Below, one piece after another: positions 12,760-64,000 of a DNA stretch of 64,000 bases (positions within the stretch are counted from its first letter, which is position 1; the number at the start of each line of letters is the position of its first letter). The stretch spans positions 1-64,000 of the forward strand of contig NOWV01000168.1 in assembly GCA_003344405.1 (NCBI GenBank). The letters run 5' to 3'. A model generated the notes under the pieces. The model saw only the letters and a program-made list of their open reading frames with translations, was not told the DNA's origin and did no database searches. This DNA comes from Trichoplax sp. H2 (taxonomy: Eukaryota). The position numbers and the translations under genes are program-made.

Positions 12760-14788
12760 ATGGATAAAGATGACGAATATACAGTGACGCCATCGCAGCG
12801 ACAATCTGCGCCATTTTTCTTGAGTGGTTTTCTTGCTCAATCATGTGTGGTTGCGATATGTGTTATGATTGGGTTATGGATGGGAGTTTATAGCAGTCAT
12901 CCCGGTCTCGATTGGACTGATACCTTTCATCGTTTACATCTCCATCCATTCCTAATGGTAGTTGCGGTTGTATTTTCTGCTACTGAGGGTATGCAACTAG
13001 TTGAAACAGAAATAAACATTTTGCATAACGATAGTCGGATCAACTGTAATCGATACTGCTTGCAACTGGTTGGATATCTTGTCAAAGTAGAAAAGTGACT
13101 ACTTCATTACACAGTGGAATCGGAATGATTGGTTTTGGACAAACCAATCATGTTCATTGACTTTTCCATTCTATCCATGACGACGAAGCAGTAGGCAATG
13201 ATTGATGTATCTTATGGATTGAAAATTGCCTAGTGTCCATTTATACGTGCATAGTATGAATAGTCAATATTATATCAAAGTCTATAAAATCTGTAGGAGT
13301 CGGATAGGACTGTTGATCCTGATACTCTTCAACAGTTTCGCTTTCAGTACTGTAAAGTATAGTGGTGACTTTGCAAGTAAACCCACGCTTCCATCAGATA
13401 ATCGATGCTATTACAAATGCCGTCCTTAAATCGATAGTAATTACTCTAATTGCCTACTATTATACGGTAAAATTGTTCATGTAGACAGTTTACAGACATC
13501 GAGAAATAGGTCAGTTAGAAAAAAAAGTTGGAGATACGATCATCGCAAATGCTACAAGATACTCCTTCCAGCGATACAATTGCTTCCTAGCAAAATTCTT
13601 CATGATATCACATCGAGACCAACAGGGCCTACAAGTGTACAATAAGTTAATCACCGTAGCAAATAAAACATGATCACGTCTACCATACTCTACTACTGCT
13701 CTAGCACCGGTTGCACTGGCCCATTTAAATAACTCACTATACCGGCCTGTTTACAACTGACTGTCTATTGCACAAGTCAATTAATAAATACGTCGCTTAT
13801 TATCATCAATTTCATCTTTTAGCTATCTTAATCTTCCGGATGCTGCGTACGATTTCCAAGCCGACGGTAAAAGCGATCCATGTTTTCCTGCATACGGCTA
13901 CCCTAGCTTTGGTTGGAACTGCCTTGGCAGCAGTGATTAAATCGAAGAACGACTTGAAATTTGCTCATTTTTATAGCGCTCATAGTTGGTTTGCCTTAAT
14001 AGTTCTCTTCTTATACGCCAGTGAGGTATACCGTTTGTCCGATATTGATATCAACCTGTTCAATTATAATACTTGACGTTGAAATGAAATTTATCCCTAT
14101 CAGATATAGAATTGTATCGTATGCGTAAAGTAGAGTACTGTAGCTAGAATACTGAATGATTTGCCCAGACAGAAATAAAATTTTAGCATTCATTTTGGCT
14201 AATATCAATATACGATATGCTATCGGATAGCTGTAAATAAGTAACATGATATAGACTCTGTAGGATGCGAATTTAATAAAGCATTCATACTAATGTGTAT
14301 CCATTTCACTATTGACCTGTGTATAGTATGTAGCAGGAATTATAGTTTTCGTACTACCAACGCGCTGCATCTCAGACACCATGCGTCAGAATATTCTACC
14401 CTTTCACAAATTCTTTGGTCTTTGTACATATGTCTTCGCTCTCATTACCATCGGTATGGGTGTATTTGATTTCTTGGAATCAATTGTTGGGTAAGGATGT
14501 TGATAGATTGATTCATGAAGTAAATAACTTGTTTTGACCATTACTAAGATGGTTTACTTAAAGTTGAAATAAGTTGGAAGGAACATCAACACTTATCTGA
14601 TCGAAATTATTCTCATTTTACTCAATAGTACCTCCGCTTATTCAAATTTGGGTCTTCAAGCAAGGCTTGGCAATGCAATATGTGTCATCCTACTTATTCT
14701 TGGCGCCACCGTCGTCCATATCTTGACCAGAAGTACCTATGCACGACCTAGCACGAGTGATTCTCTTTTTGAGCCAGAACCACTTTAA
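12760..14788 (+). CDS. Cytochrome b561 family protein (paralog B), 4 exons
   Basis: Exons 12760-12988, 13823-14025, 14327-14490, 14629-14788. Motifs LHPFLM, KAIHVFLH, FYSAHSWF and PFHKFFG. Intron positions and phases match paralog A. Confidence 0.92.
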
Positions 14789-16443: not shown

Positions 16444-18986
16444 CTAATCACCATCCTTATTAGCGGTTTGTCCAGAATAGAAATCGTTGAGCTATATTGC
16501 GATAGAAAGATATTGGTTGGTATATTGATGAAATTAGACCTATCAATTAGACCCATCTTTCTACAATAATTGTGCATGATTATAGAAATGTAAAACAAAC
16601 TTATTATAAATTAACTTGTATAAAATAGGCGAGTGTAAAAACTTACAACTTTTTGGATAATTTTAAGTCCTTGTTCATTTCCAGAGCAGTCATTGATACC
16701 GTAAGGCTCACGGATTTTCACAGACTCATCTATAGCGCAAAGTAGCTTACCTTTCCATTTTACATCAAATCTATCGGGTAACAAGACGTATACAGTAGTT
16801 ACAAATAGTGCATCAAAAGTTCTATCTTGTCGCTCATGAATACGTAATGCAATGCAGCATATAGAATATCAGCTGCACCGAAAGAGTTTGACGATATTAG
16901 AGAGCCTCTATACTTACTTTTTCTTTATAGCTGCGTATACTAATGCTCCTGTTCTAGAGATACCTTCGCGATGAACTATTTTTCCTTCTTCAATAGCTTC
17001 TTGAAGCCGTTGATCGATGCCCTCAAGATTTAGTTCAGGTAAGCTTGGAGGGGATTTGTCGCAATCTTCGATGACATCTATCTCACGTAACTTTGTTAGG
17101 TTGACAATCATGACATCCCGCCATTCACGATTTTGTGATTGTTTGCATTATTAGTGTTAAGAAGAAATCTTACCATTGCGTAATCACAAGCGCGAATATT
17201 ATTTTAAAATCAATAAAGTAGCATTGCTAAGTAAATGATAATGGACAAGATTGCTGCAATTAAAACGAAAACAATGTCGTCATTTCAAATAGGAGATGCA
17301 CATCTTCTTCTTTCATAGTTGATGAAAGGTTTTATATCGCTCAAAGAGGTTAATATGCGCACTCCTAGAATGGAATCAATCGCTAATATTTTACTTTAAT
17401 TCAATATGCCGTCCATGTTGTAGTGATACTACGTACTGGTGGTTGCTAGTGCACTATCGCACTGAATGCGTATACATATTCTGTCAAGCCATTGGATTGA
17501 AGATTTCATCATCTTCGATTTAGTAAAGGTAAAGGCCTTGATTGTAGTAAGAGTCAGTCAAGTTTGAGGGCAAAGATGATTTCTGGTGTCTAGTAATACG
17601 TAGGATAAGTTGTCAGAATCCTTTTTTGTTTATTTCCTATACTGTATGATGGAGTAGATTTGGACGAAAATTATAACGCTAGATAGAATGTCAATGCGCA
17701 CAAATGTGTCCTCGACAAATTATGTATGCTATCCAGGATTGTAAATGCTAACTACATGCTTTATTTATACATTGACTATACCTTGCAATTTGTTTTGTCG
17801 AGTACAATCCCAATCTTTCATTATACGAGTAAGTAATCAATGTGGATTTGGGAGGTCTACTATTTCTTTTCAGTGTACTATCCTATCTCCATAAGAGATG
17901 AAATCATAATGCATTTCCACTTTTACAGTATACCGTACTAGAGGGAAAACTTGACGAACAAGATGTCAACAACGTGTGTATCTATCAAATTCATTCACTA
18001 GCTATTTATAGTGATGCGAATGCAAGTATTCAAGAAGAGTAGTAACAGTTTCGTAGAATAGAGGCAATTCCTTTTAACAGTCCACTTCGAGAGTAGAACA
18101 AAAATCTATCGGACGGTATTGTAGGTGTCTACCCTTATGAGCTAAATAAACTGCCAACTTGTGATCAAATGAGCACTGTCTACAGTAATACTGCTTATGC
18201 TCGAGTGTCGGCTGTAGACTGTCGTTCATTTGAGTGCAGGCGGTAGGCACCTTGAGGGGATATCACGTAGAACGAATCGACGGCTATTCCATGACAAAAT
18301 GACTATCGTAAAATCATCCAACAAGAATGTTTGTGGCATAACACTAGTGCGTGCAATCGTCTTCTTGACGACACTATTCCTGCCTACTCATGTTAACATG
18401 AAATCGATGGTCCATTGATGAATCCTTGACGGTACAGTGTTGTCGACAACAATATATGCCGATCTCTTCTGAATGTCCTGTATACGATTGCAAGGATGAC
18501 ATTGAGGAAAATTGGTGATCGTCCATGACCACTGTAATCATGTCGACATCAATACGAATCACTGTATCCAATAGAATATCGACTGCTTTAACGAGCCTTA
18601 CTATCTTACCGTGTGATCGTACCTTTCAATTAGTGTACTTTAGCGTAGAATCAAGCTACTACTGTAAACGAATTGGACGTTGTTGTATGCCTCTCTCTCT
18701 CTCTCTCGATCAAGAGTTTACAGCGGCGCTGATGTCTAGACATTGTCTCGTTATAGTCGTAAAACTAGCAACATTTCAGAATGAATTACAGTCCATCGAT
18801 CAACATGAGGATACTTAAGACCAGCATTTTGGTCTTTTCTTCAAAGGCGTCCACATCTCCTTGTAATTCGCTGCCTAGGCATGTTACTAATCTGACTTTA
18901 TCCCCAATTCTTAGAGGCGGTATTTTTCGCATATTGAGTCCTACGGCATCGCTAGTAGAGACATCTTTTCGTGAGGAAGACGCCAT
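16444..18986 (-). CDS. LSM12: LSM12 homolog (Lsm domain plus anticodon-binding domain)
   Basis: Exons 18986-18815, about 17149-16918, 16770-16647, and a tentative last exon 16491-16444. ELQGDVDAFEEKTKMLVLKC...SPPSLPELNL...GISRTGALVYAAIKK...VKWKGK...IREPYGINDCSG aligns by eye with human LSM12. Confidence 0.88.
17150..18814 (-). other. U12-type (minor spliceosome) intron in LSM12 with non-canonical 3' end
   Basis: Donor GTATCCTC at 18814 and U12-like branch site TTCTTAAC at 17163-17156. There is no AG between the branch site and the resumed coding sequence. Confidence 0.75.
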
Positions 18987-19774
18987 TTTTTTTCCCTTTC
19001 TACCACATTACGGACTACCTACTGAGTACTGCAAACTCGCTAGTACCAACACCTTGACTGTACCATACTGAGTGTCTAGCAGTACTGATGTCCAGTACAG
19101 TACAATCCGGTCGTGAAGAATAGTACTGTAGAAAGGGACTAGGATTCAAAGCGAGCCATTGGTCTACTGAGACAATACTCTCACTCTCATACATTGCTCA
19201 TTGCAATTACTCCATGGCTACGACTGTATGAAACAATGTACAGTCCACGTGTACTCGTTGGACTGTACACTGTACAGTCATGACTCGTACAGGAGTACTG
19301 TGATACAGGTAGAAGAAATCTCTATGAATCGACAACTGCCCACTCAGCCCACTTGTCATGGTCGACATGTAGTCCATCCATCCATGATGTCTGAAGAGGA
19401 TGGACTGCGGTACGGCCATCGAGTATAAAGAAAAAAACTTCACGTTATTGGGTACAGCCCTGACGCAAGAGACGGGACATTTGGACAGACAGGAAACGAT
19501 CTTCAGATTGTAGCTCATTGGATATCCATGGCGGACAGTATAGTATGGACAGTATATTAGTCTCTATTTTCTTTTACTTTACGGTTCTGCACTGTGCAGT
19601 ATACTGTCAGAGACGGGATAGGAAACGCTTGTTCACTATACTTAGCTGCTATTAGCTTACTAAGTTGGTTTGAACCAGTATGTGTAGATACGTTTTCATC
19701 GCTTTCGTCATCCTGTACCGTAGAGGAAGAAAACAACATGGCGTGCTGACTACAGAATGCATTACACTGGTAGT

Positions 19775-27244: not shown

Positions 27245-28586
27245 CTACAAAGTGGTTGTTACTTCGCCCGATCGGATGGCATCGTAATATTTATCAATGG
27301 CCTTTTGCATTTCAGATTTCTGTAATGCTTTCAGGAAGACATCTAATGTACCTGATTTTCCCTTACTGCAAGACCAGGTCAAAAAAAGTTTATAATACTG
27401 ATTATAACTGCCACGCTCATCGTGACTAATATCGTCAGTATCTTGCTCCTTTAGCTTAAGTTTATTTGCCACTTTCTTAAAATCGTTTCTCTGAAGCCGA
27501 GAAGCGAAAAAATCGAATGTTTGACGTAGGTTATCTCCTGGAAAAAAAATATGATATAAGTTTATGTAAACGGTAATTTAACGATTTATATAAGCATATG
27601 CAGTATTAACTGGATAATTAAGTATATTACCATTGCGAACAATTAGAAAAATCAAGAGTGTAATTATATTTATCTTTGGATTGATACGCTTATTACTGTA
27701 CAAGCAGAAATTACTCAGGTATAGCTTAAGCGCTCACGTAGTTTGCTAGTTAATTGAGAATGAGTGTATAAATATAGCCATGTCCTCTACTGTACTGTAC
27801 AATCTTTTGGATGAAATAGTAAAAGCATAAAATGGAGTACCTTGCATGCTAGGGTAATACAGTATAGTATAAATTTCTGAACCTTGTATTGACAGAGCTT
27901 TCCTATAATCATATCTATTAGTCAAATGTTTCACTCGTGATATTTTACGTACTTGTATACCAAATATAACACATGTATCTCAGCACATAATGCATGCTAT
28001 GTATATTATAATTCTGCATATACATGAATGTATAGTAACTGCTTCCATAAATTAATCCTAAATCGCCTGCCTACTATCCATAACTGCATACTGCAATAGG
28101 TAACTATATGTGTTTTTTTTAATATAGAAATATATACGTATATCAATGGGATGAATTAAATTATACTGCATTTTTACCCCATCTAGCGAGATCTTGCTCA
28201 GATAAGGCATTATTACTTAAATCTGTATCCTTGTTTTCATCTGGTCTGGCTGTATCTTTATCGACATTGATATCTTTCTTTATCTCTTCCCCAATATGTC
28301 GACAATTACATGAAGGTTGAGTAATGATTTTTAAAAAGACGTGGAATTGATTAACCGTTTTACTGAAAAGTAAATTTAACAGTTTGAAATTGGCATCAGA
28401 ATCGATCTGCAATTGCGACAAATTATTAGTAATATTTCGCAATTCCTCCAGAGATAAAACACCTTCGTTGAATAATTCCGAAGCAATTTGCTTAGTTTGT
28501 AAATTATCTTTTAGTGATGTGAAATTTTTCCTTAAAGCCTCAAATTCCTTTTGATCATCTTTTAAAGGAGATTCACCATCGGCCAT
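27245..28586 (-). CDS. CARD plus Death-domain adaptor protein (RAIDD/CRADD-like architecture), 2 exons
   Basis: Exon 1 28586-28178 is CARD-like (ALRKNFTSLKDNL...IASELFNEGVLSLEELRNI...KLLNLL...FHVFLKII). A phase-1 GT-AG intron leads to exon 2 27537-27245, which is DD-like (FKKVANKLKLKEQDTDDISHD...YKLFLTW...GTLDVFLKALQKSEM). Confidence 0.7.
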
Positions 28587-29756
28587 GATGATTGCTAACG
28601 TGGCATGCGAATAGAAAGTTCTAGAGCAAGAGTGCTACTACGCGTCTAAACGCTATGACTTTGTATAGCTAGGACACTGCCTGGTCGAACTCCGACCACC
28701 CAACACGTTGCCATGCAACGTTAGAGCTTGCTTGTGAACAGTAGTGCGTTTAAGGCGTACGATTCTAGTCTGCCGGCACAGTAAAATGGCCAGCAATCAT
28801 AGTCAGCCATAGAATTATCGAGTCTGTCTTTTCTTTTTATTTTAGTAGTTCTTGCTTTTAGTAGTCCCTGGTCACTAATACTCATATTTAGAGATTTTTA
28901 CAAGAAAATGATACAGTACGATGCAACTGTATAGCACAGTGAGGCAGCTGGATTGCGGTTACTTTCGGTACTGTGCAAAGATATTGGCTCCAGCCCTCTA
29001 AGCGCAATATCGTTTTTAACAACGATTTGTATATATATATACAACAGGTAAAATGAGGTCTGTTTCCATCCCTAGTGCAGCCTACTGACTGGCTAGCAAA
29101 AAAGAAGCAGGGTCGACAAATAGAATCCTGTCTCGCACTCTCGTTGCACTGCAGGGGTGCAGGTCTACCACCACCTTACTAGTGCATTGCACGAGCAATA
29201 GGCAATTCTGAAGATCGATCCATCTTCCCTGTCTGTGTACAGTACACCCCATTTGCAATCAAAAATATAAAAAAAAAGAAAACCTTCCTATCTTCCATCC
29301 CTTCCGATATTTTCTGTAGCAAACATCAATATCCATTCTGTTCAGTTCGAGCTGTACTACAATTATTTTCGATAGCCTTAAGAGATTGCTAGTCCCCCAA
29401 AAGAGGTGTGGCTTTTAGCGAGTCGTCAAGATTGAAACTATGCGCAGTCTCATAGCCCCTTTTCCTAATTCGAAAATCGCCAAGTTGTCGCCCCCCTTTA
29501 ACATCTTCTCCCACCTTTGCAAGCCTACCATCCCTGTTTTTCTTCACCAATTTGGCTGCTTCAACTTGTTTTACTCAAGCCGACAAGTAAGCTGTAGGTA
29601 AGTGTAGAAAAATGCTGCTTGTAATGGTTATTGATTGTGTAGAGAGTACTTGAAAGTTGATCAGTAAAGAGTAAGTACGCTTGTATCTTACGTCTTGTGA
29701 TTAATTGCAGGCAGCTTTGAATTAATTGATCACACGGAGAATTGCAACTATCTGAA

Positions 29757-30611
29757 ATGGCTGAAGAAAGACAATCTACCGAGTCGAAAGCACTACAATG
29801 GAACGCCAATGATGAAACGTTAACTGCATTCTTAGATCGATTGCAAGTAGAATTAGATGATCGAGAAATTATCGATAATCAACAGTGTGTCTCCTGTTTA
29901 ATTCGAGCACTTCCACCTCTGATACGAAATGGACTGAAAGCCATGTCCAATGATCAAGACGTAACACAGCAAGATTACCAACAAGTTGTTGAAGAAATCA
30001 AGCAGCAATGCCTACCTCAAGCGCAACCCTCTAAAACGGTGTGGTGGCATCGAGCACAACTCTATCAACGAAAGCAACGATCCAAAGAATCGATTGAACA
30101 ATATAAAAATGTGCTATTAACGCTTGCCAAACACTGCCAGCTCCATTATCATCAAGATATGATGTTGACCATGGTATTTATAGCTGGCTTAAGAGAAAGA
30201 TCCATTCGACGTCGTCTTCTCGATTACCAACAAGAACTCAACTTTATCAAAGTAGTCGATTATGCTTTAGAAATTAAAGCAGAAAAATCAGCCGTGGAGA
30301 CTACACAAGATAATACGCGTATCAATCATGACAGTGATCATCATGATGACCATGCTGAAGTCGATGATAACCACGATGATAACAGTAAAAATCCAAGAAG
30401 AAATCGAAGGAGAGAAAAAAGACCACAGCAAGCGCGAAATACCTATCATGAATCCAAAAAGTCTTGCTATCGTTGTGGAAGTTTCGCTCATCTAGCTGCA
30501 AGTTGTACCTATAGAAGACTATATTGCGACTGGTGTGGAAAGAAAGGCCATATAGTTCGTGAATGTTATGAAAAAATGGACTATGATGACGATTATAACT
30601 ATTATGATTAA
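29757..30611 (+). CDS. Single-coding-exon retrotransposon Gag-like protein (Ty3/gypsy-type capsid region plus two CCHC zinc knuckles), no pol
   Basis: Intact 284-aa ORF from ATG 29757. ETLTAFLDRL, RKQRSKESIEQYKNVLLTLAKHC and VFIAGLRERSIRRRLL are typical of gypsy Gag. Knuckles CYRCGSFAHLAASC and CDWCGKKGHIVREC (CX2CX4HX4C). No protease or RT ORF is seen downstream. Confidence 0.85.
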   Translation: MAEERQSTESKALQWNANDETLTAFLDRLQVELDDREIIDNQQCVSCLIRALPPLIRNGLKAMSNDQDVTQQDYQQVVEEIKQQCLPQAQPSKTVWWHRAQLYQRKQRSKESIEQYKNVLLTLAKHCQLHYHQDMMLTMVFIAGLRERSIRRRLLDYQQELNFIKVVDYALEIKAEKSAVETTQDNTRINHDSDHHDDHAEVDDNHDDNSKNPRRNRRREKRPQQARNTYHESKKSCYRCGSFAHLAASCTYRRLYCDWCGKKGHIVRECYEKMDYDDDYNYYD

Positions 30612-48400: not shown

Positions 48401-49566
48401 ATAAAAATAATGATTTGATCCAATCAACACCTCTAACCCATGGCTATGGCATGAAACTCAAACTTATATAAGTATAGAAAACACTACAAGGTATCTGTCT
48501 CTTTCTTAAGTATACCATGATGATTGGATCAATCATTTGAGTATATGCAGCCTTGATTAAACTTTATCATCACATGATGATTGGAATGGATTGTTCGCCA
48601 CCTGATTAGTTACGTCATTCTTTATCTTGTCTACCTCGATAGCTAAATTGCCATAGCAACCGGATTGCTGGTCTTATTATCGTCACAAATTGTTTTTCTA
48701 CTTGTTATTGCTAAAACAGGACAATAATATAATCGAAGCAGAAGAGCTCCTCTACTTTTGTCTCATAACTTTCTACAAGGGTCGTGTTATAATCAATGCA
48801 GTCTTTTCTTCTCATTTATTATTAAAAAAAACAAAAATCTACCACTAAGGCAAATTATACAAACCCATTGACAGCGATACAACTTGTTGAATTTGAACAG
48901 CGAACTAGGTTGGCGAATTTGCATAGACGTCCTCAAATTGATATCATCTTCGTTTCTTTTTGGTTATTCCTCAACATCAGATAGTATTTTTAACCCTAAA
49001 GCGTAGCTCAACAAAAAAACTAATCGATATCAAGTCATTACAACGCTAATTCTAAATTATTTCTTCTCCAAATTGTTTCAAATATCGGATCGACTATTGA
49101 ACATCTTGAGCTATCCCATCCTCCAACAGGTTATACCCATTAATCTTGCCATCGTATCAAGTATCCATTTACTTTACTCCTCAAGGATAGCCATTAATCG
49201 AACAGCAAGCTGATTAGAAATAATATTGGATCATAAAATTCCTCAATCCGCATAAAGACTTATTATTCCAATTGAAACCATTTAAAGAAAGAAATCGCTT
49301 TACATTCCATTAAAATAATTGGATTGATACTATAGATTGCACACATCAATTTATTCTTTCCGTCGCGATATTGCTTAACTTCATAGGCTTCAGCCTTAAA
49401 TATTGACATCCAGAGATCAAGAATAGTATGTATTGACTCTGATTGGCATTAATCCATTGGAAAATCACTTTATAACTCTGCTGTTAGATATCCTACATAA
49501 TTATTGGCTATTGTCTACAAGAGTAAGAAAACGTTTCCAACTTACCGTTGATTGTATTACCCAAAG

Positions 49567-52500
49567 ATGGGTGCAGTATTAAGTAGGAAAGTACAACTGG
49601 CTAGTGACGACAGTTGGAAATACACTGTTCGTAATGATGACGACGACGGAGGTGAAGAAAATAAAAAAAATAATCAAGAGAATTATCATACTATAAGTAA
49701 ATTATTAAACTCTACTCATCAAACAAGTACAGTTCCAGCCATGACTAGCAATAGTAAAGCTTATAAAGAGCTAAAATTCGATTACGAATACACTTGGCCA
49801 TTCGAAAATCTTGTTCTTGAAGGAGGTGGTAGTAAAGGGATGGCCTACGTTGGTACTCTTAAGGTTAGTTTGATAAAGTAAACATCTCCATCATTTGCTT
49901 TGATAATCATTCATGTAATGAATAGCAATATTATCAAGCATAAATAAAATAAATCAAGTAATTTAAACCTAGTGGAGCATATCGCTATAATAAAAAGTCG
50001 CTCGTATCTTTCTTAAACAACATCATCCCTAAAATCTGACCTTAGTGATGAAATCAACTTCATTTTCGGTATTTTATTACAAAGTCCGCGGTTAAGGAGC
50101 ACATATAGCAATCACTGAGAATTTAATTACCGAATGATAAAAGTCAGACAATAACTCATTTATATTCCATTTTTGTTTTACCTTATTTTAATACGGATGA
50201 AACGATAACTTTTTTTCTTGGTTTTTGCATTACGTACCTTATCAGTTCTATGATGTTGCTGTTGATATAAAGAATCAACCATCATAGCATAAATTCAGAT
50301 GCTTTAAAGTCTCAAATTCTATTGCATAAATATATGAATTTTAAAGATAAGAGCATCAATTGAAAGTTTAACTCTACCATAGATTCATTGGCAATTTATG
50401 ATAAGCATGTTAAACCTATCGGTTGAAATTTGACTTTAAATTCTTATAATGATATAGGATAACGCATTGAGTAATTTATTATTTTATGATAGCGATCCAT
50501 TTGCATTAAATAGTTATTAATCAATGGAAGATATTCTATGTATGATACGTTTAGTACAGTCTAACCTATTTTTGCCTAATTCTAGTTACTTAAAAAACCG
50601 GTCATTAACATAACCTGCTTACTGATGTAGTGATTTTATTGTAAAGAGTTGAATCGAACAAGTAACAAGGATGACCGACTTTATTTCATTCAATTTAGCG
50701 CGTTTTAGGATAGATATAAGATTAAAGTTAGCGTGGTCATCAGTATTTTTTCTGAGCTGTTACACTTTAAAATAACTACCAAGCTCAAATTTAATATTTT
50801 GATACGGTAAGATACTGACCTTGAGGTATGAAGATGACGGTTTCCTATTACTAATTTGCCCTCTTTTCCCTCTGATCACTTCATTATTCAAAGGCATTAT
50901 TATAATCTACAACATGCAGTGATTATTTGATGCCAGTGGGTATTAATTCTCAGAATTCATAATTATACTATAAATTGTTTCTTAATCCACGCACACAAAA
51001 ATATCGGAGCCAACAAACTACATTAATGAAGGATACTTTTCAACCTTGAATTTATGCTCGTACTTAGTTTGTACCATTGGATGGCTTATATTGACAAAGC
51101 TTGAATCCTTTTAAACGACAGCTAGTCATTTTTATCTTTACTGCTTTATTCTAGCGGATTGGGTAATTAACTTTACAAATGATGATTGTTATACCGTCCA
51201 AACGTTATAAAATTTTATTCTGCCTCAATTTTTCGTACCCTACTAATACACGAATTGAATAATATTTCGTATAGAATCGAGTATCGTGTAGTTCCAAACA
51301 TTTAGTAATAATCAAGAAATTATAATATTGCAATAGTCAAATTGAAAATAAACGATTTACGCACGAAACAAATGTTGTATCATTTACTCCTGAAATTTTA
51401 TGGGATACCCAATCAGTCAAAATTTCGCTACGTCTACGCTTGTACTGATATTTTCAAATGTGGGTAAATTTGTGATCTAAAATTATATAAAATTAGTTGT
51501 AGATGAAATAGATATTTCAAGACTAAATACGGCAGCAGATATTCATCAGTGCCGCTTTGGATTTTATTAGATAGTACTATTTTTAATGTTTTCTTCAGCC
51601 TGTTTGATCCCTACGAAAGCGATCTGCATATAGCAAGCGTCTGAATTCTTTTAAAGGGTGTTCTAAACATACGCATAGAATAGATATTTTGCTGACTGTG
51701 TAAACATCATATTCAACTTTGACATCTCTTTTACGCCGAATAATATAACACCTAGAAACCGTCGCATACCACTCTCATCATACAGGTCTTAGTTAGCCTA
51801 GGAAAAAAATAAATTCGACAGTAAAAATCATTTTTTTCCTATTGCCCATCGATAACACCAATTCGACATCATCCACAAACAGTCCGATTTGACTTTATAC
51901 TTTAATCAAGAAATTTCTTCAAAAAGAAATCATTGTCTATAGTCAGAAAAAACTCCTTAGGTGCCAACTGAAAATGATGAATTGTTTTCTTTCAATCTAA
52001 CTAGAAGCTTATGCCCATTCTTTCCTGCTACATACCTTTCTATCGATATTTTGTTGTCTAGTTTTTCAATCCCATTCAGGATCGATGCCACGCCTTATGT
52101 ATATATACAGTATATGCCGCCGCTATTGATTCAAGTTTAACTACGCCATTTTCTATTATAATTATTTCCCTCCTCTGTTAGTAATTCTTGCCTGTCTATC
52201 TACTATGATAAAGTCTTGCATCATTTTTCTATTCAATGTTTTTTACCCTATAGCGATAAGAATCGGGTTTAAGTAATTTTGATTTAATTTCCATTCCGAT
52301 TAGTTTTTGCTAGCAGTAATAGGAATCATCCTTTACATTTAGAGAGCGTATTTTATCATGGACTTCTAACAAGCCCCCTGATTTTATATACTAGTCTGTC
52401 GTAGTAATGATAGAGAGGTGTAGACTTGTCGTTGTGGACGATTTTTCGCTAGCAGCAATGATCTAAGAATTTTATTTTACTAGGAAGTTGGAGGGCATAT

Positions 52501-55500
52501 TTTGCATACCCAATCGGTCGTAGTAATGATAAAGAGATGTACATGTACTTGTCAATCCTGTTATCCAATATAGTGCATCTAGATACATAAAATTCCATGG
52601 TCAGAGTGGATAAAATGAGAATTCAGTTGGATCAGACTAGAAGAGTTTAACAGGAAATTAGATGAGATGGACCTGTTGCTTGTACAATCGCTTCGTAAGC
52701 ATTGACATTTGTATAGGAACTATCGCAATCGTTGACAATTCTTCGTTATACCTTTTATTGATGACCATAATGAATATGCGATTAACTTATCCTACATCCG
52801 GATAAAAGGAGCAATAAAAGATAATAGGTTAATAGTGCAATGGCGAGTGGTCCTTTTTAATCCTTTCCTTCCTCATAGTTAGAGATGGAAAGAATAATGT
52901 ATCAAAGTTAAAATTTCTTGTCATATGATATTTAAGGAACTTGATATAATCAGAAATAGAGAAATTCAGTTTCTATATTATGACGCTAGTAATTCTATTA
53001 GAAATAGCATATTGACAACCTTGATGGAAAAACGTAACAGTTTGGTAATTGTTGCAGTCATTAATGATTAGCATTTCATAGAGCAATAATTCCTAGCTAC
53101 ACAACTGGATTATGTTATAATTGTATTCATTCTTAATAATATGATAGGTATTAGAAGATGCCGGCATTCTTCGAAATATAAAACGCGTAGCAGGCGCAAG
53201 TGCAGGCGCCATGTCAGCTTGCCTAATTGCAGTTGGCTTGAAACCATCTCAAATAGAGGAATTCTTGAATCAAGATACTCGTAAATTATTAATGGGTAAG
53301 TCCTACTAATTTCATTTTGTACGTGTATATCATTTGCAAGCGATTTTAATTGCAATTTATAAGCTATTTATTGATCCTAATTGATGATAATATAAAGATT
53401 CATATCATCATCATACTGTATTTTTGATAGCCAATGACGACGGTAGATAAATTCGTAGTTAGGCTTTAATGTCAGTAGGAATATATGCGTATAAAAGGAC
53501 AAGATTATTTTTGAGCTTCTTGCTATCATCATCAATGTTAACGAAGCTATGCGAACATACTATCGCATATGATTACGTCAAATTACGATCATAATGAATA
53601 ATTTACGTCGATAAAAGGGAAAGGTGTAGATAGATTTGTTTCAATTGACTACATTATATGTTTGATCACAATTTCCTCTTTCATTATACTATGAATGACT
53701 AGCTATAGTAGAGAAAATAACGTCCATTTATTCCCTTATACTACAAGTATCAGTAAGATAAAATTAATGATTACCAGCAGGGAGTAACCTCAAAGTATTT
53801 AATTATTTTTTTCTGTGGTGTTATTGCTATTTACAGATCATTCTTGCGGTTACCTCAGTTTATTACCAAATATTTTACAAAAGTACGGCTGGAATCCAGG
53901 TAAAAGATTATTGCATTGGTTCGGTGAGACACTAGAGAATGTCACTGGTAATGCCGATATCACTTTTTGGGAGGTAAGCTAAACGAATAGAGAAAGTAAA
54001 GAAATCATAGCAATTTTTTCTTGATTTTTAAATTTATTTGAATATGAAATATATTCATTTCTACGGATAGGTTTATGAAGGCTTTGGTATTGAGCTTTGC
54101 ATTGTGGCAACAAATCTCAATTTAATGTCAGTAGAATATTTCCACCCTAAAACATCCCCTAATATGCCAATAAGGAAGGCAGTTCGTATGTCTATGTCAA
54201 TTCCAGGTTAGTATAGTATTTGCACAAGATACTCTACTGTAGACATATCCTACAGCAGTATCCAATAGAATATCTCACACAAGATATTGTATCATTATTA
54301 AACTTTGACTCCATTTATCATAATAGGCATATTTCAAAGCGTTTTACACAAAAATCACGAGCACTTTGATGTTTATGTCGATGGTGGGTTACTCTGTAAT
54401 TATCCAATTCATGCGTTCGATGGTTGGTGGCTATCGATGAAGCCTGAAGATAGCTTTTTAAGAAAATTACAACCACTGAATGATTTACCACGATTATTTG
54501 ATAAATCTGAACGATTTGGTGTATGGAATGATAAAACGATTGGATTGATGCTGGTAAAGTGATACACTTATGCGTCTAAAATCATATTCTTTACAACTAT
54601 TAATAAACATTTTTCAAGGCTTATTAAATAAAATCATTTTTTATAATAAATTATAGTACTCGCGTACGGAAAACGAATTTCTTAAAACTTACTTAAGTGC
54701 TAGAGATGGTTGCCAACCTCCATTACCACCAAGAACAAAATTATCAATGTAAGTATATGAGGATATTATGTAATCTAACGCTTTTAGCTTATTTACAAGA
54801 TACAGACAATTCTATTGTCAATATACGATCAATTCTTTGGAAGCCTTTATAATCTTGTTTAAAATTGGTAAATTGAAAAATTTTATAAATGCATTTATGT
54901 AGTGCTAGAGAGAAAATCCGACAGAAGCAACAGATAATGATGAGAGATCATAGCAAGGTTGTTAAAGCAATCGAACGTTTTCTGAAAGTCTTAGCCGAGA
55001 GTAACATCGACGAAGATGCCATAATTGATAAAACTGAGCTCAAGTTGGCATTTAGCGATGTAAGCCCGATATTACTACAGGAATAGCGATTTAGATACTC
55101 GTCAATCAAATTGCTTAATAGTTTTTAAGCTCTTTAGAAGATGACAGGCTCGTCGTTAATAATACGACCATTAAGCTTCTAGATTTGCTTAGTATTAGCC
55201 TAATATTGATCAAAGTATAATTTTTATGTCGACATTCACGTTTATAGAAGGAAAAATTTTCCGACGATGATGCATATCTCCTATTTGGTAAAGATTATAC
55301 CTTGGCATCAGCATTTGAAACTTTAGATACTGACGGAGATGGAAGTGTAAGTAAATCTGCCATAGCTATCTACAGCTCGCTTGTTAATACTAGTCTATTT
55401 GAGAGTGTTCTCTTTTTAAGAAAAATAGAGGGTACTGTTAGTTTTATATTATCAACAGCAATCATAGCATTGGAACTATGGAACACTTATCACAACGGAT

Positions 55501-57097
55501 TAAGTGTCATTAGGCTAGATTAACTTATTGTAACTATCAAATCATGACCATTACGGCGCAAGATTTTCTTCCACAGAATAGTTTTGACATGTGTATATAG
55601 AATATTTATAGTTATAGAAGGTTGACGATTACAACGATGATTGATATGCTACGATTTATTTCTTCTAGATCACGTTTCAAGAATTAGTTAATTTTGTAGA
55701 AAAGCGTGGTGTTAGTTTACAAGCCCGATTTGAAGGTTTAAATCGTAAAGAGATTAATGGTCTTGGAGATTTTATGGTTAATCTACAGGAAGCATTATCT
55801 ATTAATGTAAAAAAAGTCTACGTCGAGGTAAGATATTTGCTATAGAATATTCGAGTATTTTAAAATGCCTTCAGTTAAAAATCATTGGTTTTAAGTCCAC
55901 TTCCAGACATTGTTTCGCACAGCTAGCCCTTCAATAGCGATTTATAATAAGCTTCTATTAAAATTGATCAATTTATTTCCTATATTAATTTGATGTCCAT
56001 ACATCTATATGAAATCGATGTTTAAAATAGTCGGTTTATGCTTTATTTTAATTTAATGTAAGCGTATAACTTTGTAAAAAAGCTCGAATTGTACTTCGAT
56101 TAATTCAAGTTTATAAGCTTTAAAGACTACTGTTAGATGTTAGAAGACTTAAACTCTGATTGTGCAGGAATTAAATTACTGTCGTTTTATCTTGTAGAAA
56201 CGCGATGTAGAAAGGACGATCGGTATCGATACCGATTATATAGAAACCACTGACTTTGAATTATTAAAAGAAGATCGAGAATTCTTACTGGAGGTAATAA
56301 CGCTTATAGATGCACTATTTTCTATCCACTGAAGGATTTTCGATATAAAATTACTGTATAAGTATCAAGTATACAGAAATATTTTATCATCTATCATCTT
56401 GCCTGTATTTTTATAATATTAAGCCAATTTTGGCGCAATACCCTATCTTCTCTAATTGAATTAAATGTACTCAGGTTGGTCGTCGATCTGCTAGAGCATT
56501 CCTGTATGACTTTCTCAAGCGAAAGAATCCACCTAGGAAAACAGCAGCTGATTACAAGAGAAGTCGTCGAATGGAAGCATTGCGACATCAACAATTATTA
56601 CGACGGCGTAGCGAACAAATCTTAGGTTTATCATCAGGAAGTCAATCTAAAAACAAGAAGAGTCTGTCGGGACGAAAAAAAGTTTCCGTAAGTTTAAGCA
56701 CTATAGTACTATTATCGGTATATTGTATCAGATTTAAATGTAAACATCCAAAACGATCTCTATAACCATCATTGAATCTAAATGATTTAACTACTGTACT
56801 GGTATTGTAAGTGGTACCTTATTTTAGTATACCCAGGGTGAAATATGAAGTGATTGCGCAGTTTTATCCTTTTTTTAAATGGTGACTGTGTTAAACTCGT
56901 ACTGATCAATCTGTTTTTTAATTATCTGACGAAAATAGATAAAGAAGAACGCCAAAAATCCTATGATGAGGCAAATTACAGAAGAAACAGAAATTACCGA
57001 TTCCGATGCAAGTGATATCAGTTCAACTGGTGGTAAAGATACTCGTAGACTGAATCCAATTAATAATAGGCCTCGAACAAGAACATGGGATAATTAG
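49567..57097 (+). CDS. Patatin-like phospholipase with inserted EF-hand pair and N-terminal myristoylation-type motif, 12 exons
   Basis: Exons 49567-49863, 53148-53295, 53837-53973, 54071-54206, 54327-54553, 54657-54748, 54903-55059, 55248-55346, 55669-55827, 56198-56293, 56475-56687, 56939-57097. Motifs ENLVLEGGGSKG, AGASAG, AVRMSMSIPG and YVDGG. EF loops NIDEDAIIDKTE and DTDGDGSITFQE. Starts MGAVLS. Confidence 0.9.
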
Positions 57098-59224
57098 CGC
57101 AATTATAACAAAAGTTATAAGAAATTGATGGAAAAGCTGTAAAGCTTGGACCACGATTACTACACGAATTTTAGTTTATGATATCTAGTACTGTATATTA
57201 GCGGTTTTGAGCTTGAACGGATAGTATTATATAATTATACTTTATACCGTCGAGCATTCGATGGAATAATTCTTACTTGAACTTATAAATACGTATAACA
57301 TTGAATTATTGACTTTACTATTATCGTCGTGTAGCTACGAAGAAAATATGTTTTAGTATATTTAATAGCAAAGTATACACCTCGATATGCTATCCTTTCT
57401 CTACGAAGTCAAAGAAATCGATTCTGCTATTTTTTTCAGCACAATTTAAATTTTATACATCATACTATGTATCAGTTAGAATTTATTAATAGATAGAATA
57501 TATTGAGATTTTGTGCCGCCGATAAGAATCGTCTACACGCTGTACTTACTGCTTGACTAATCATTATCAAGTCTACATCATTCAAACAATAATTCCAATT
57601 TGATGCTTATGTTGATTGTAATATTTGGATTATGACTACGAGGTGGAATAATCAATTCCCTGTAACTATTATTGTCATTGTAGTTGGCCATGCCAATATA
57701 CATAAGTTATTGAATTGATCCTTTAGAATTCATACTTTAGGCTGGTAGCATATTTACTGCACAATAATGTAATGCATTAACATAAAAAAATTACGGCGAG
57801 GCGGCTTAGTACAGTATCTATAAATCATTACTTGCATCTAAAATGCTAAATTATTTCATTGCAAAATTCAAAAATTTCTCTGATCATGTTAATGATTTTA
57901 AATGATATTCATGAACTTTTGCTGATCCATATTATTTCCTTACATGCTATCTGTAATAACGGTATTTCTTCTCCATTATCGCCAATATCAATATCTCATT
58001 TCATATTTCGATAGATTACCATGTATCAAATTTAGGTCAATTGTATGGGTAGTTAATTATAATGTAATTGATAAGATGCTGTCATAACATATTGAATAAT
58101 TACAATCAATCTATGAAATGTTAACTAAATAGCAGCTTTGATAGCAGCCATTTTTATATTTTGCAAGTTCATTTTTAATTATTGCCGCTAGTATGGTTAC
58201 TCTAAGTTAAGTTCAAAAAGGCTACGCAGGTACGTCAATATCTAGAATAATAGCCTACCTATTTTAAATAAACTTATTCTAAATTGAATATAATGGTATC
58301 TTTAATTAACCTATAATAATATTCATCATTAGTATTAATAACCTATTATAATAACGATTGGGAAAGTGATCACAACCTACGTAGCAGACAATTCAATGGC
58401 ATTAGATAGAATATATCTGTTGAATTATACTGTATTCATGATAATGATGACATAGCAGTATTAGCAAATAAAGATAATACACTCCTCTCTTTATTGTCCA
58501 TTAATTTAACATTTCATTTCCTGCTTATTCTATAAAGCCTGTATAAACAATCTACATGAAATTGTGCTACAGTTACCGTGTACGTAACGATAGCATAAAA
58601 TTGGTGTAAAACACATTTTTTATTTCTTAATGTGAACTAATTTGAACATTGTAGCTAGTTTACACCTTATTTTGTAAAACGTTAGAGAATTTCTGTCTAT
58701 ATATTTTATGTACTAGGTGTGTAATACATTTCGGCTCGTATTTAATGAAATAATAAAGAAATTGGAATAGTTATATTTGAATCAAAGATGTAGTTGTTGT
58801 CTCGATATAATATAATCGTGTAACAAAGCAAATGGTTCAATAAGGAAACCATGGGCAGTAAAAGTTACGAACAAGTAATTGCTGATTGTTTATCTACTAC
58901 AATCGCTTCTATGTATAATAATAATGGAAATATTAGCGTAAATATGCTATTACTAGTACTGAATGGACTGATAATTATTATCATATAATACAGTAGAGAT
59001 AAAGTAGATTTTACAGGCTTACAGCACTGATATAGCAAGTACGTTTAACACACACATACTATACATATATATGAATATGAACGAGGCTAGAGAAATGTTC
59101 TATAAGCTGCGTATCAGTATATTCCATTAATCTTTTAAGAGTATGCATTTGTTTTGATATAGGCAAACATAACTAAGAGATGATATCAGGTACCATAACA
59201 ATTCAATCAGTAAGCTTTCGTGAT

Positions 59225-60492
59225 CTATGTTTTTTCTTTACTGCTTTCGTGTAATAGACCTAAAAACAAGAAACAGAGTTATTTACAATGCGTGAATAAA
59301 GTTAGTTTTACAATAATTAAATATACATAGAGCGTCTATACGTAATGGTACTATCCTGACCTATCTTTGAAATTATTCCATCAACTGATGGCGTATAAAA
59401 CGAGAAAAGTAGCTTGAATTAGAATTTTACGAACTTACTATTAATCCTATCGGTAGTAGTTTTCCGATCTACCAAGAAGAAGATGTTGCTATTGGGTTGC
59501 TTTGAGTACACTGCCTGCAGATATTAAAGATTAACTTGTTCTATCATCGTATATCGATTTTATCTATTAATATGTATAATTGCATCATTGGATAAAGATA
59601 TATCATAGCTGCATAACCGATCGATTATATATTTAGATTATTCATTACTTTATCGTACAGTGAGTGCTACTTGCTAAAGTAGATTATATTAACGATAAAT
59701 TACAGATTAAGAAGGCGACTGATAATATTGATGGAGTTGCAATCTTCAACTTTAAAGGACTGTCATCCTAAACTACAGTTCAATATGGTTGACTTACTCG
59801 ATTAGGTTTCAAAGAAGTTAATTCTCCACTCATCACGGTCAATTCATGGCGCTATTGGAAGTAAAATAGGGCATTATTATAATTTAGACGCTTAAGTTAT
59901 ACGCGTACATCAGTTATACTCATTATTATTGAAAGTAGAACTTTTTGAAAGACTCAGATTTGGTAGTCCATCATTAGTAAAATAACTTTCGCTCTTTGTA
60001 GTCTTCGACCTCTTATACAATAAACATTTTGTAGTTGTACAGTTTATTTCCATTTCTCAACCAAAAATATCCTTGGGCATATATCATTTCGAGGTAGTCC
60101 ACAGTTTGTACACTGTGCACTGCATAGTGACTATAGTTACGACTGTAATTGAACAACAAATTAAGTTGCAGTCGATCGTACAGTATCCTCCTCTTCAGGA
60201 CATGATCTACAATCATATTGTAATTTACAGTAATCAATATACAGTTATGCCGTCATTTGAATCACAACTAGCTGTTTTATTGCATCTTCTCAAGCAAAAA
60301 TGGCCATTAAATCATCCAAACCTATCAAAATGATTCAAGTCACCCACTCACTACCGTCATTACTTGAGCGATGAATTCAATTGCAGTATCTTATTGTATA
60401 TAATAATCTAGGATGATTTCTAAAGTTATCCGTGTATTTGGAGTATGTACCCTTCTTTCTTCGTCAGTAAGACGTTTTGGAACTTCCTCCAT
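59225..60492 (-). CDS. ASDURF: ASDURF-like small prefoldin-like protein (about 68 aa), 4 exons
   Basis: Exons 60492-60451 (tentative), 59851-59798, 59514-59439 and 59259-59225 give MEEVPKRLTDEERRRHELTVMSGELTSLKPNRAVYSKQPNSNIFFLVDRKTTTDRINSLLHESSKEKT. The core matches recalled human ASDURF [26 protein letters not shown]. Confidence 0.8.
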
Positions 60493-60498
60493 ATCGAA

Positions 60499-61150
60499 TC
60501 TAAGTTGCCAGAAAGGGTCCGAGATAAAATGGGCGTAGAAGGACTTCTATAACTTTGAAGGAGAGAAATTAAATTCCTTGCTCAAGTATTTATAACAACA
60601 ATTTGGCCACAAGCCTCTGAATTCCTCATCACAAGTCCTTAAGCTTCCACATTACAGTATGTCGATTTGGAAGGATCTCTATCCAAGCACTGTAGATTGT
60701 AGTCAGTAATCGTCTAAGTAAATTAGTATACAGCATCGAACCCCGCGATTGGCTGATACAAATTACTGNNNNNNNNNNNNNNNNNNNNTCTAAGTTGCCA
60801 GAAAGGGTCCGAGATAAAATGGGCGTAGAAGGACTTCTATAACTTTGAAGGAGAGAAATTTAATTCCTTGCTCAAGTATTTATAACAACAATTTGGCCAC
60901 AAGCCTCTGAATTCCTCATCACAAGTCCTTAAGCTTCCACATTACAGTAATTAAACTCCTTGCTCAAGTATTTATAACAACAATTTGGCCACAAGCCTCT
61001 GAATTCCTCATCACAAGTCCTTCGGCTTCCACGTTACAGTACGTCGATTTGGAAGGATCTCTATCCAAGCACTGTAGATTGTAGTCAGTAATCGCCTAAG
61101 TAAGTTAGTATACAGTATCGAACCCCGCGATTGGCTGATACAAATTACTG
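60499..61150. repeat. Near-identical duplication across a 20-N assembly gap (60769-60788)
   Basis: 60499-60768 is repeated from 60789 onward, with an extra internal copy of about 90 bp near 60948-61040. Confidence 0.9.
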
Positions 61151-61761
61151 TCTAGACTTGCTAGGTTAGCGCGACTCCATTGACCGCTGCTACAGTACAA
61201 TTTGACCGGACTGCTACTCAAGTACAGCATATAAAGTACTGTAGTGTTTATTTCTCTCTTCAAGGGACACCAGCCATTTTGCATCAACTTGATATATTCC
61301 TTCCGATGAAACAGAATTTTCTCTAAAATAAACTGGGAATACAACATTACCGAACTAAAATATCAATTGTATTGGTACGATACGATAATAAATAGACATT
61401 TGTTTTAACTAATTCGATCATTTTTCAACTCTACAGTCTACACAACACGAATGAATGCACTATTTCTTACTGAATGAATTCAAAATTTCTCCTTTTAGCT
61501 GCAAAGATTGGGCATCTTTTAGTACAAATTGAACACGTTACAATTAATCAACGCAATTCTAAGGTACTGTTGTACCATCTGACGAGCACTCACCAAATAG
61601 ACTGTGCTATCGAGATCAAATAGCTTATCGTATTACAGCTAGCAGCTAGCGGTTTACTGTTATCGCTCAATACAGTATTAGATACGCCTTCATAAGACAT
61701 ACCAGAGTCTCGACCGAAACTGTGCAGCAAAGTCTCCTTCAAACTTCTTCGAGGTTCAGAT

Positions 61762-63979
61762 ATGACATTGTTAACGTTGTTACGCCGTTCAGTAAGGGAT
61801 AAAGGACGTGCCCTTCGCTCAGTTATAAGTCAATATCAGCCGTCAGCATCTGTACATAATGATGGGCCTTTGAGAGGCATTAAAGTACTCGACCTGACAA
61901 GGTATGATAGAATAAGGTGCTTTTTCAACACATTATCTGCAGCATAGAAGTACGCATAGCTTTACCAAAAATAGATTACACTTTTTATTTAATCTACTAG
62001 TAGATCCCTCGCTCGTTATACTTCGCGTACTAAGTACATGTACAGTATTTGTGTTTATACTCGACTCATTATGCTTGTATTTGCTTAAATGGAATAAATA
62101 TCTATTACTATTTCTTAGAGTTTTAGCTGGGCCGTATACAACAATGGTGCTTGGTGATCTTGGAGCTGAAGTAATTAAAATTGAGAAACCAGGTTAGTAT
62201 GATTACAATAAGAATTTAAAAGCGAGCATCATCCTATACTATAGGAGTGATACAACCGTTGATAGTGATATGCTATCCGATGATGATTTACAACATAGGA
62301 GTATACATACTTCCTGCCTAATCTTGATCGGTACAGTTCATTCTATATAGAGGTAAAAAATGAACTTATAGCATACATTGAATAGGAGATGGTGACGATA
62401 CAAGATCTTGGGGTCCTCCATTCGTAAATAGTGAAAGTACCTACTTCCTGTCTATCAATAGAAATAAAAAGGTATAAATTATATTTCGGATGGTCAACTC
62501 TGAAATTGCTATTGTATCAGGCTGAGTATAAAATTATGCTATACTATACTTTTATCTTATTGTGGTGAACAATGTTATTAAAATCTACGTATATGTAATT
62601 GATTTGTAGTTGTGTAGTCATGATATAAGTAACAAGTTGGATAGTACTTTGAAGATGAACTGGTTCAATAAAGTTATAATTACCAACTCTGTATTAATGT
62701 GCGTTAATTTAATAATTCTCTTATGACAGGTGTATTGTATTACCATAGTGACAGTTTTTTTGCTTTATATGCGCAGCAATCATGCTAAAGAAACATGTAT
62801 GCTAATTTTAATATTTAGAGTGTTGTTGTTGATCTAAAACGTTCAGAAGGATCCAATCTTGTCAGAAAGGTTAATATCACAATATTTATATTGAATTATA
62901 CAAATAATTGTAAACATAAATTGCTTATCACTAATGACTTCTGGTGTGACTGTTTCTCACTTAGTTAGCTGCATCATGCGATATTTTAATTGAAAATTAT
63001 CTACCTGGAAAGTTGGACAAGTATGGATTAGATTATGAAAGTATTCGCGAGTCTTCACCCGGAATCATTTATTGCTCAATATCTGGCTATGGATCAGATG
63101 GACCTTATCGAAATCGTCCTGGCTATGATGTGATTGCTGCCGGTATTGGAGGACTATTGCATATAACAGGACCTGAGGTAATACTATCGTTGAGTGAAAT
63201 AGCAATGGCATAGAATATCAACTTACCTTGTCAATATTCTTGTACTGTGTTACATCCCCTACGGAATTTAAATTAAATCTTAATTATCTTACCATACCTT
63301 GCATATCTGACGTACTTTTAGTAAAGTTTTGGATATGTTAACATCAGTAGTTTGGAGGATCTAGGTAGTTGCATTTAATGGTAGCATTTCTAACGCGCAA
63401 TAAATAATAGGATAAAAGTCACTCTGGAATACTAGATGATTTATATTTAATTTGTGCTTCATTTGAAAGGGTGGAGATCCCTGTAAAGCTGGCATTCCAG
63501 TTACGGATATGGCTACGGGATTATATGCTTCCACTTCAATTATAGCTGCTTTAGTAGAGAAACATAAGAGTGGAGTAGGTCAAAAAATTGAATGTAACCT
63601 GCTGAATACCCAGGTAACGATTAGAATTTGATGTTACGAACCTATAGCTTTTATCATATTGTACATCTTTACTAATAAAAGTATTCTTCAATTGATTAAG
63701 GTAGCAATGTTAAGCTATGTTGCTGCTGCTTATCTAAATGGTGGACTGGAATGGCATCGTTGGGGAACAGCTCATGGTAGTATTGTACCTTATCAGGTGC
63801 AGTATAATTCTTAAACTATTTACCTATACGATCTATAATTCGTGCAATATTATACACCTGTGTTGTGTTCACCATCTAACTAGTATTAACATATCATCAT
63901 ATACAAGGCATTCAAAACGGCCGACAGCTACATTGTTGTAGGAGCTGGAAATAACACTCAGTTTCAACAATTATGCAAG
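61762..63979 (+). CDS. SUGCT: Succinate-hydroxymethylglutarate CoA-transferase (CaiB/BaiF family III), runs off the window end
   Basis: Mitochondrial-type presequence, then [50 protein letters not shown]...[11 protein letters not shown]...ENYLPGKL...[18 protein letters not shown]...[13 protein letters not shown] across at least 8 exons. Confidence 0.93.
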
Positions 63980-64000
63980 GTAAATGTAGTAAATTAAAAT

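Follow-up and report, generated by a model that had tools for sequence, protein, structure and literature searches.

A spliced, apparently monocistronic ASDURF gene, locally uncoupled from ASNSD1, in the placozoan Trichoplax sp. H2

Introduction

Human ASDURF is encoded by a uORF on the ASNSD1 mRNA and is among the best-known functional uORF-encoded human proteins. The PAQosome is a co-chaperone that, in humans, includes a prefoldin-like module. Two papers, in their available text, name human ASDURF together with URI1, UXT, PDRG1, PFDN2 and PFDN6 as members of the PAQosome's unconventional prefoldin complex (PMC9406135; PMC8567396), and the Hofman preprint, in its available part, reports 'four exons' for the human gene. 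In Arabidopsis, ASDURF is listed as AT1G49245, with its own gene identifier and separate from any ASNSD1 gene (PMC10893143 Table 1; bioRxiv 10.1101/2023.12.13.571423, accessible portions), and the same portions of the preprint describe the Arabidopsis orthologue as co-purifying with UXT, URI, PFD2, PFD6 and PDRG1 (bioRxiv 10.1101/2023.12.13.571423). Because Arabidopsis lacks it, placement as a uORF of ASNSD1 is no general trait of the protein family, and with a stand-alone ASDURF recorded earlier in this plant, finding the gene apart from ASNSD1 is no novelty as such.

How is the gene arranged in an early-branching animal? A literature search combining ASNSD1 and Trichoplax returned no paper, broader searches yielded nothing on how the gene is arranged outside vertebrates and Arabidopsis, and the available portions of the ASDURF and ASNSD1 literature do not discuss the arrangement in non-vertebrate animals; the original discovery paper may cover it. 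Here, we describe a small spliced gene on contig NOWV01000168.1 of Trichoplax sp. H2, found within a stretch of 64,000 nucleotides (hereafter the window). We conclude that this is very probably a monocistronic, four-exon nuclear gene encoding a 68-residue ASDURF / ASNSD1-SEP protein of the beta prefoldin-like type, most likely a subunit of the prefoldin-like module.

Results

A four-exon gene on the minus strand

We compared assembled contigs from three RNA runs, all belonging to one study (X13, X14 and X17), and from one DNA-like run (X1) over positions 56000-60700 of the window. The resulting gene model, on the minus strand between 60492 and 59225, is as follows.

60493..60604, minus strand: 5'UTR, minimum extent; supported up to 60604 by X13 record 12 and X14 record 17; enters a 92-bp repeat
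60451..60492, minus strand: coding exon 1, 42 nt, codons 1-14, ATG at 60492, donor GT at 60450
59852..60450, minus strand: intron 1, 599 nt, GT..AG, phase 0; skipped in X13, X14 and X17, covered in X1
59798..59851, minus strand: coding exon 2, 54 nt, codons 15-32
59515..59797, minus strand: intron 2, 283 nt, GT..AG, phase 0; skipped in X13, X14 and X17
59439..59514, minus strand: coding exon 3, 76 nt, codons 33-57 and base 1 of codon 58
59260..59438, minus strand: intron 3, 179 nt, GT..AG, phase 1; skipped in X13, X14 and X17
59225..59259, minus strand: coding exon 4, 35 nt, remainder of codon 58 through codon 68, TAG stop codon at 59227-59225
58865..59224, minus strand: 3'UTR, minimum extent; covered without a break from 59257 to 58865 by X13 record 12; may extend further

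Spliced together, the four exons form a coding sequence of 207 nt that encodes 68 amino acids, and each of the three introns has a pyrimidine-rich tract ahead of its acceptor. A TAG lies in frame at 60549-60547, 18 codons upstream, and the ATG at 60492 is the earliest to follow it (the open frame at 60391-60546 starts right after this TAG); the 112 nt of 5'UTR with RNA support contain no ATG. Further downstream, the minus strand carries ATTAAA/AATAAA at 58746, 58624 and 58495.

The three junctions (60450/59852, 59797/59515 and 59438/59260) were each found in all three RNA runs, in one contig per run, and the stretches skipped there read CT..AC on the plus strand, that is, GT..AG on the minus strand. 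The junction-spanning contigs had depths of 28.9, 28.5 and 4.0, and intron 1 was also partly covered by low-depth RNA contigs (2.7-2.8). None of the X1 contigs carried any of the three junctions, and the introns were covered without a break; because it lacks the splice joints and runs continuously through the introns, X1 behaves as DNA and serves as a control. A first-pass annotation, made from the letters of the window alone, had proposed that four tiny exons splice into one protein and had named the two downstream junctions. The sequence and the RNA junctions bear this out: both of those junctions were recovered exact to the base in all three RNA runs, and the third was recovered too. We therefore conclude that the four-exon gene is real, spliced and expressed. 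Since the RNA evidence consists of assembled, unstranded contigs from a single study, from which rare variants are dropped, it shows the spliced form but fixes neither the transcript ends, nor the strand, nor the level of expression.

No sequence difference among the runs was listed in the 207 coding bases, and six were listed in the surrounding 1.5 kb; chance would put about one of these there, and the zero found is therefore uninformative with regard to constraint.

Identity of the protein

The 68-residue protein (P0001) reads MEEVPKRLTDEERRRHELTVMSGELTSLKPNRAVYSKQPNSNIFFLVDRKTTTDRINSLLHESSKEKT and, in a comparison by script, equals the spliced four-exon translation letter for letter. Against the Pfam profile PF21975 (ASNSD1-SEP), it scored 35.7 bits, with a gathering cut-off of 27 and an E value of 9.6e-9, a match far beyond chance; residues 15-66 align to positions 31-82 of the 96 positions in the profile. 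The same label, PF21975, is attached to the protein as its precomputed Pfam assignment in a public collection, and a Pfam scan up to E 10 yielded PF21975 only, with no match to Prefoldin_2 (PF01920). Exon 3 alone, as a 34-aa stop-to-stop frame, matched PF21975 at 18.9 bits (E 0.0017) and carries the conserved NSNIFFLVDR core of the predicted beta-hairpin, as judged from this exon-only match and from the predicted strands. The family assignment made in the first-pass annotation, an ASDURF homologue, thus agrees with a profile score above the gathering threshold (35.7 versus 27 bits). It is on this Pfam score that membership rests, and the predicted fold is consistent with it; judged by sequence, the 68-aa product belongs to the ASDURF / ASNSD1-SEP family.

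Sequence searches for relatives returned the protein itself. An exhaustive phmmer search with the 34-aa exon 3 frame against 1.84 billion representatives returned P0001 alone (E 1e-8), and a word-indexed search with P0001 among proteins of near length gave one candidate, P0001 itself, and no other relative. Among longer or fused proteins, none of the 19 candidates from the same type of search reached E 1, which is weak evidence for an uncoupled protein. Neither the exon 3 frame nor P0001 matched any PDB sequence in phmmer up to E 10. In a feature search of the ESM Atlas, which we treat as a lead only, ranks 1-3 were all ASNSD1-SEP clusters (scores 0.86-0.87), and rank 4 (0.86) was a cluster from plants that bears the name 'Prefoldin subunit 1 family protein' and in which 33% of members carry PF01920.

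Human ASDURF is likewise a small protein with PF21975, and its order of helix, beta-hairpin and helix is also predicted, at low confidence, for the placozoan protein. The two differ in length, with 96 aa in the human protein versus 68 aa in the placozoan one, whose helices are shorter and in which profile positions 1-30 and 83-96 are absent. Both genes have four coding exons if the 'four exons' of the Hofman preprint, in its available part, are so counted, although this is a match in number only.

A single-sequence AlphaFold2 model of P0001, of low confidence (mean pLDDT 60.4, pTM 0.30), placed helices at residues 10-23 and 49-65 and strands at 32-37 and 42-47. The order of elements in this low-confidence model, helix, beta-hairpin, helix, is that expected for a beta-prefoldin. 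A Foldseek search of the PDB with the same model gave no match at E 0.001 or better, and its best five rows were archaeal prefoldin beta chains at non-significant E values of 0.23-0.58. The model is consistent with a beta-type prefoldin-like fold. Canonical beta-prefoldins (PFDN1/2/4/6; archaeal PfdB, PDB 1fxk chain B) have the element order predicted for P0001, but their helices are much longer (the Foldseek target chains have 94-114 residues, versus 68 in the placozoan protein), and they belong to PF01920, to which P0001 has no match up to E 10.

The NCBI entry for the protein, RDD38623.1, is titled 'hypothetical protein TrispH2_009511 [Trichoplax sp. H2]'. The gene had been thought probably missed by annotation; since the exact 68-aa protein is already deposited, it is unnamed rather than missed. 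Its 90% cluster has no other member, whereas the neighbouring SUGCT protein has an entry from T. adhaerens, so the older T. adhaerens annotation may lack this ASDURF gene.

Relationship to ASNSD1 and to the downstream gene

Beyond the TAG, the RNA contigs run on without splicing, as far as 58865 in X13 record 12 and 56939 in X14 record 17. In the contigs, we found neither further minus-strand junctions nor loose RNA ends after exon 4 or in the 3'UTR, and none at exons 3-4. The longest minus-strand stop-to-stop frame in 56900-59224 has 64 codons, and ATG-started frames after the stop within the supported transcript have at most 39 codons. On its own mRNA, ASDURF would be translated as the leading ORF and the only one of notable size.

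The next gene downstream is convergent.

49552-57097, plus strand: patatin-like phospholipase gene, with PF01734 matches at 49552-49878, 53148-53306 and 54071-54208

The PF01734 match at 53148-53306 scored 28.5 bits against a cut-off of 27.7. The junctions that follow the ASDURF gene in the contigs, 56291/56473 and 56687/56939, read GT..AG on the plus strand and belong to this patatin gene; they correspond to introns 56292-56472 and 56688-56938, seen in the RNA contigs, with the last exon starting at 56939 and its frame ending at 57097. The spacer between the two convergent stop codons is thus about 2.1 kb, and the plus-strand PF01734 matches, with a last frame that ends at 57097, agree with the earlier description of a convergent patatin gene about 2.1 kb away. 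A single RNA contig, X14 record 17, extends without a break from 56939 to 59257, so that the whole 2.1-kb spacer is transcribed, although the contig is unstranded and its span across two genes is no proof of a single transcript.

Among 105 minus-strand frames of at least 40 aa in 33000-59300, which covers 26 kb downstream, none matched Asn_synthase or GATase, in keeping with the earlier observation that no ASNSD1-like coding sequence is recognisable downstream. The same two domains were absent from 66 plus-strand frames in 49400-57200 and from two further sets of frames from the window (36 and 149 frames, the latter of at least 58 aa); besides the 105, this amounts to 251 frame entries (36, 66 and 149), some frames having been scanned twice. 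Placement as a uORF of ASNSD1, which gave the protein its name in vertebrates, is therefore not what is found at the placozoan locus: human ASDURF precedes the ASNSD1 coding sequence, whereas the placozoan ORF stands alone on its transcript. The placozoan ASDURF gene thus appears monocistronic and locally uncoupled from ASNSD1. In this respect it has the independent arrangement of Arabidopsis AT1G49245, as that gene is presented in the available parts of its sources.

Flanking sequence and other genes in the window

Upstream, on the plus strand at 61696-64000, lies a divergent, head-to-head orthologue of SUGCT (CoA-transferase family III), and the best match of its exon at 62965-63210 is TRIADDRAFT_23229 of Trichoplax adhaerens, with 99% identity, ahead of SUGCT proteins from other animals. 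Together with the entry for the ASDURF protein itself, this marks the window as placozoan. Between the SUGCT and ASDURF genes lie about 1.2 kb of DNA rich in repeats. The 5' flank and 5'UTR at 60499-60768 are duplicated at 60789-61150 across a gap of N at 60769-60788, with a 92-bp tandem unit, and contigs of X13, X14 and X1 contain a joint that goes back by 92, from 60658 to 60567, and so carry one 92-bp unit more than the window. The assembly is probably imperfect at 60499-61150, a collapse or duplication at the gap being the likely cause. Because of this repeat and gap in the 5' flank, the transcription start site of ASDURF cannot be placed.

The patatin-like gene also has an EF-hand exon at 55248-55520. 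In its 3'UTR, an RNA contig of X17 switches strand at 57565-57618 (a joint between opposite strands, 57565/57606), perhaps because the assembly went wrong at a short inverted repeat. Elsewhere in the window, two cytochrome b561 genes stand head to head, about 3.5 kb apart (9127-10174, minus strand; 13729-14073, plus strand), and an LSM12-like gene on the minus strand at 16614-19007 has an LSM12 LSM domain at 18789-19007 and an anticodon-binding (AD) domain at 16614-16868. There is a Death-domain exon at 27248-27577 on the minus strand (E 3.5e-8). An unusually long open frame of 293 aa on the plus strand at 29730-30608 shows weak matches to a zinc-knuckle (E 5e-4) and to retrotransposon gag (E 5e-3) and may be gag-derived or a retroelement remnant.

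Discussion

What does this locus encode, and could it conceal the arrangement described in humans? That a minor isoform splices these exons to a distant ASNSD1, inside or outside the window, so that the uORF arrangement is present but hidden, would fit the nature of the data to some degree, in that assembled contigs lose rare variants and leave the ends of transcripts undefined, and in that the genomic place of ASNSD1 lies outside the evidence offered by this window. We nevertheless regard it as very improbable, in view of a convergent gene only 2.1 kb downstream, exons 3-4 and a 3'UTR at which no loose RNA end or extra junction was seen, and a lack of Asn_synthase and GATase matches in all 105 same-strand frames (26 kb) and all 251 other entries in the window. 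Even less credible is a transcribed non-functional relic or a chance open frame. The protein is indeed very small and truncated in comparison with the Pfam profile, and the searches found no relatives that could be aligned for constraint; but the frame stays intact through four exons whose splice sites are canonical, spliced RNA was recovered at contig depths of 28.9, 28.5 and 4.0, and a Pfam E value of 9.6e-9 is hardly that of a chance frame.

The alternative to which we give somewhat more room, while still considering it improbable, concerns the family itself. Because ASDURF is itself prefoldin-like, a diverged canonical beta-prefoldin, for example a PFDN1-like protein, might be mistaken for an ASDURF orthologue, and both the rank 4 Atlas cluster ('Prefoldin subunit 1 family protein', 0.86) and the archaeal prefoldin beta chains in the top Foldseek rows could be read in this way. 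Against this, Pfam up to E 10 yields PF21975 alone, with no Prefoldin_2, and Atlas ranks 1-3 are ASNSD1-SEP clusters.

We therefore favour an ASDURF gene in its own right. It has its own 5' region, head to head with the SUGCT gene, and its own 3'UTR, with no ASNSD1 coding sequence after it. By analogy with the known systems, its product would most likely be the sixth subunit beside URI1, UXT, PDRG1, PFDN2 and PFDN6; the central hairpin and the parts of the flanking helices covered by the Pfam profile appear to be retained, and the slot of a beta-subunit would most likely be filled in the same way. This role in the prefoldin-like module is proposed because of homology with the human and Arabidopsis proteins of the literature; the plant gene, according to the accessible portions of its sources, has membership of a prefoldin-like complex from AP-MS, whereas that of the placozoan protein is by analogy, and both the complex that it joins and its function there are likewise presumed. 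Taken in this way, the locus suggests that placozoans possess a sixth subunit of the prefoldin-like module, and a placozoan 'hypothetical protein' without a name can now receive one.

The first-pass annotation had further inferred that ASDURF is here an independent gene, which would inform how the bicistronic arrangement arose or was lost. The former holds in so far as the gene is locally monocistronic and has its own 3'UTR; the evolutionary weight placed on it was overstated, since a stand-alone gene, Arabidopsis AT1G49245, had already been described, according to the available parts of its sources. Set beside the stand-alone gene of the plant, an expressed, monocistronic, four-exon ASDURF in an early-branching animal speaks for independence as the earlier condition. 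We speculate that the last common ancestor of animals had an independent four-exon ASDURF gene and that ASNSD1 came later into the 3' part of the ASDURF unit, giving rise to the vertebrate bicistron, a scenario to which we assign even chances. For STREMI-SLC35A4, retroposition has been put forward as the route of a similar capture (PMC13303939, available portion). If the scenario is true, ASNSD1 would be a guest and ASDURF its host gene, contrary to what the naming implies, and the placozoan locus would show the state before fusion in a living animal.

Because the family, the fold class and the stand-alone arrangement have all been described already, the gain is incremental, and the placozoan ASDURF locus is a useful but modest data point of modest evolutionary value. 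It narrows the search for the point in animal evolution at which ASNSD1 was fused, and it bears on a question general to bicistronic animal genes, namely how two unrelated proteins come to share one mRNA.
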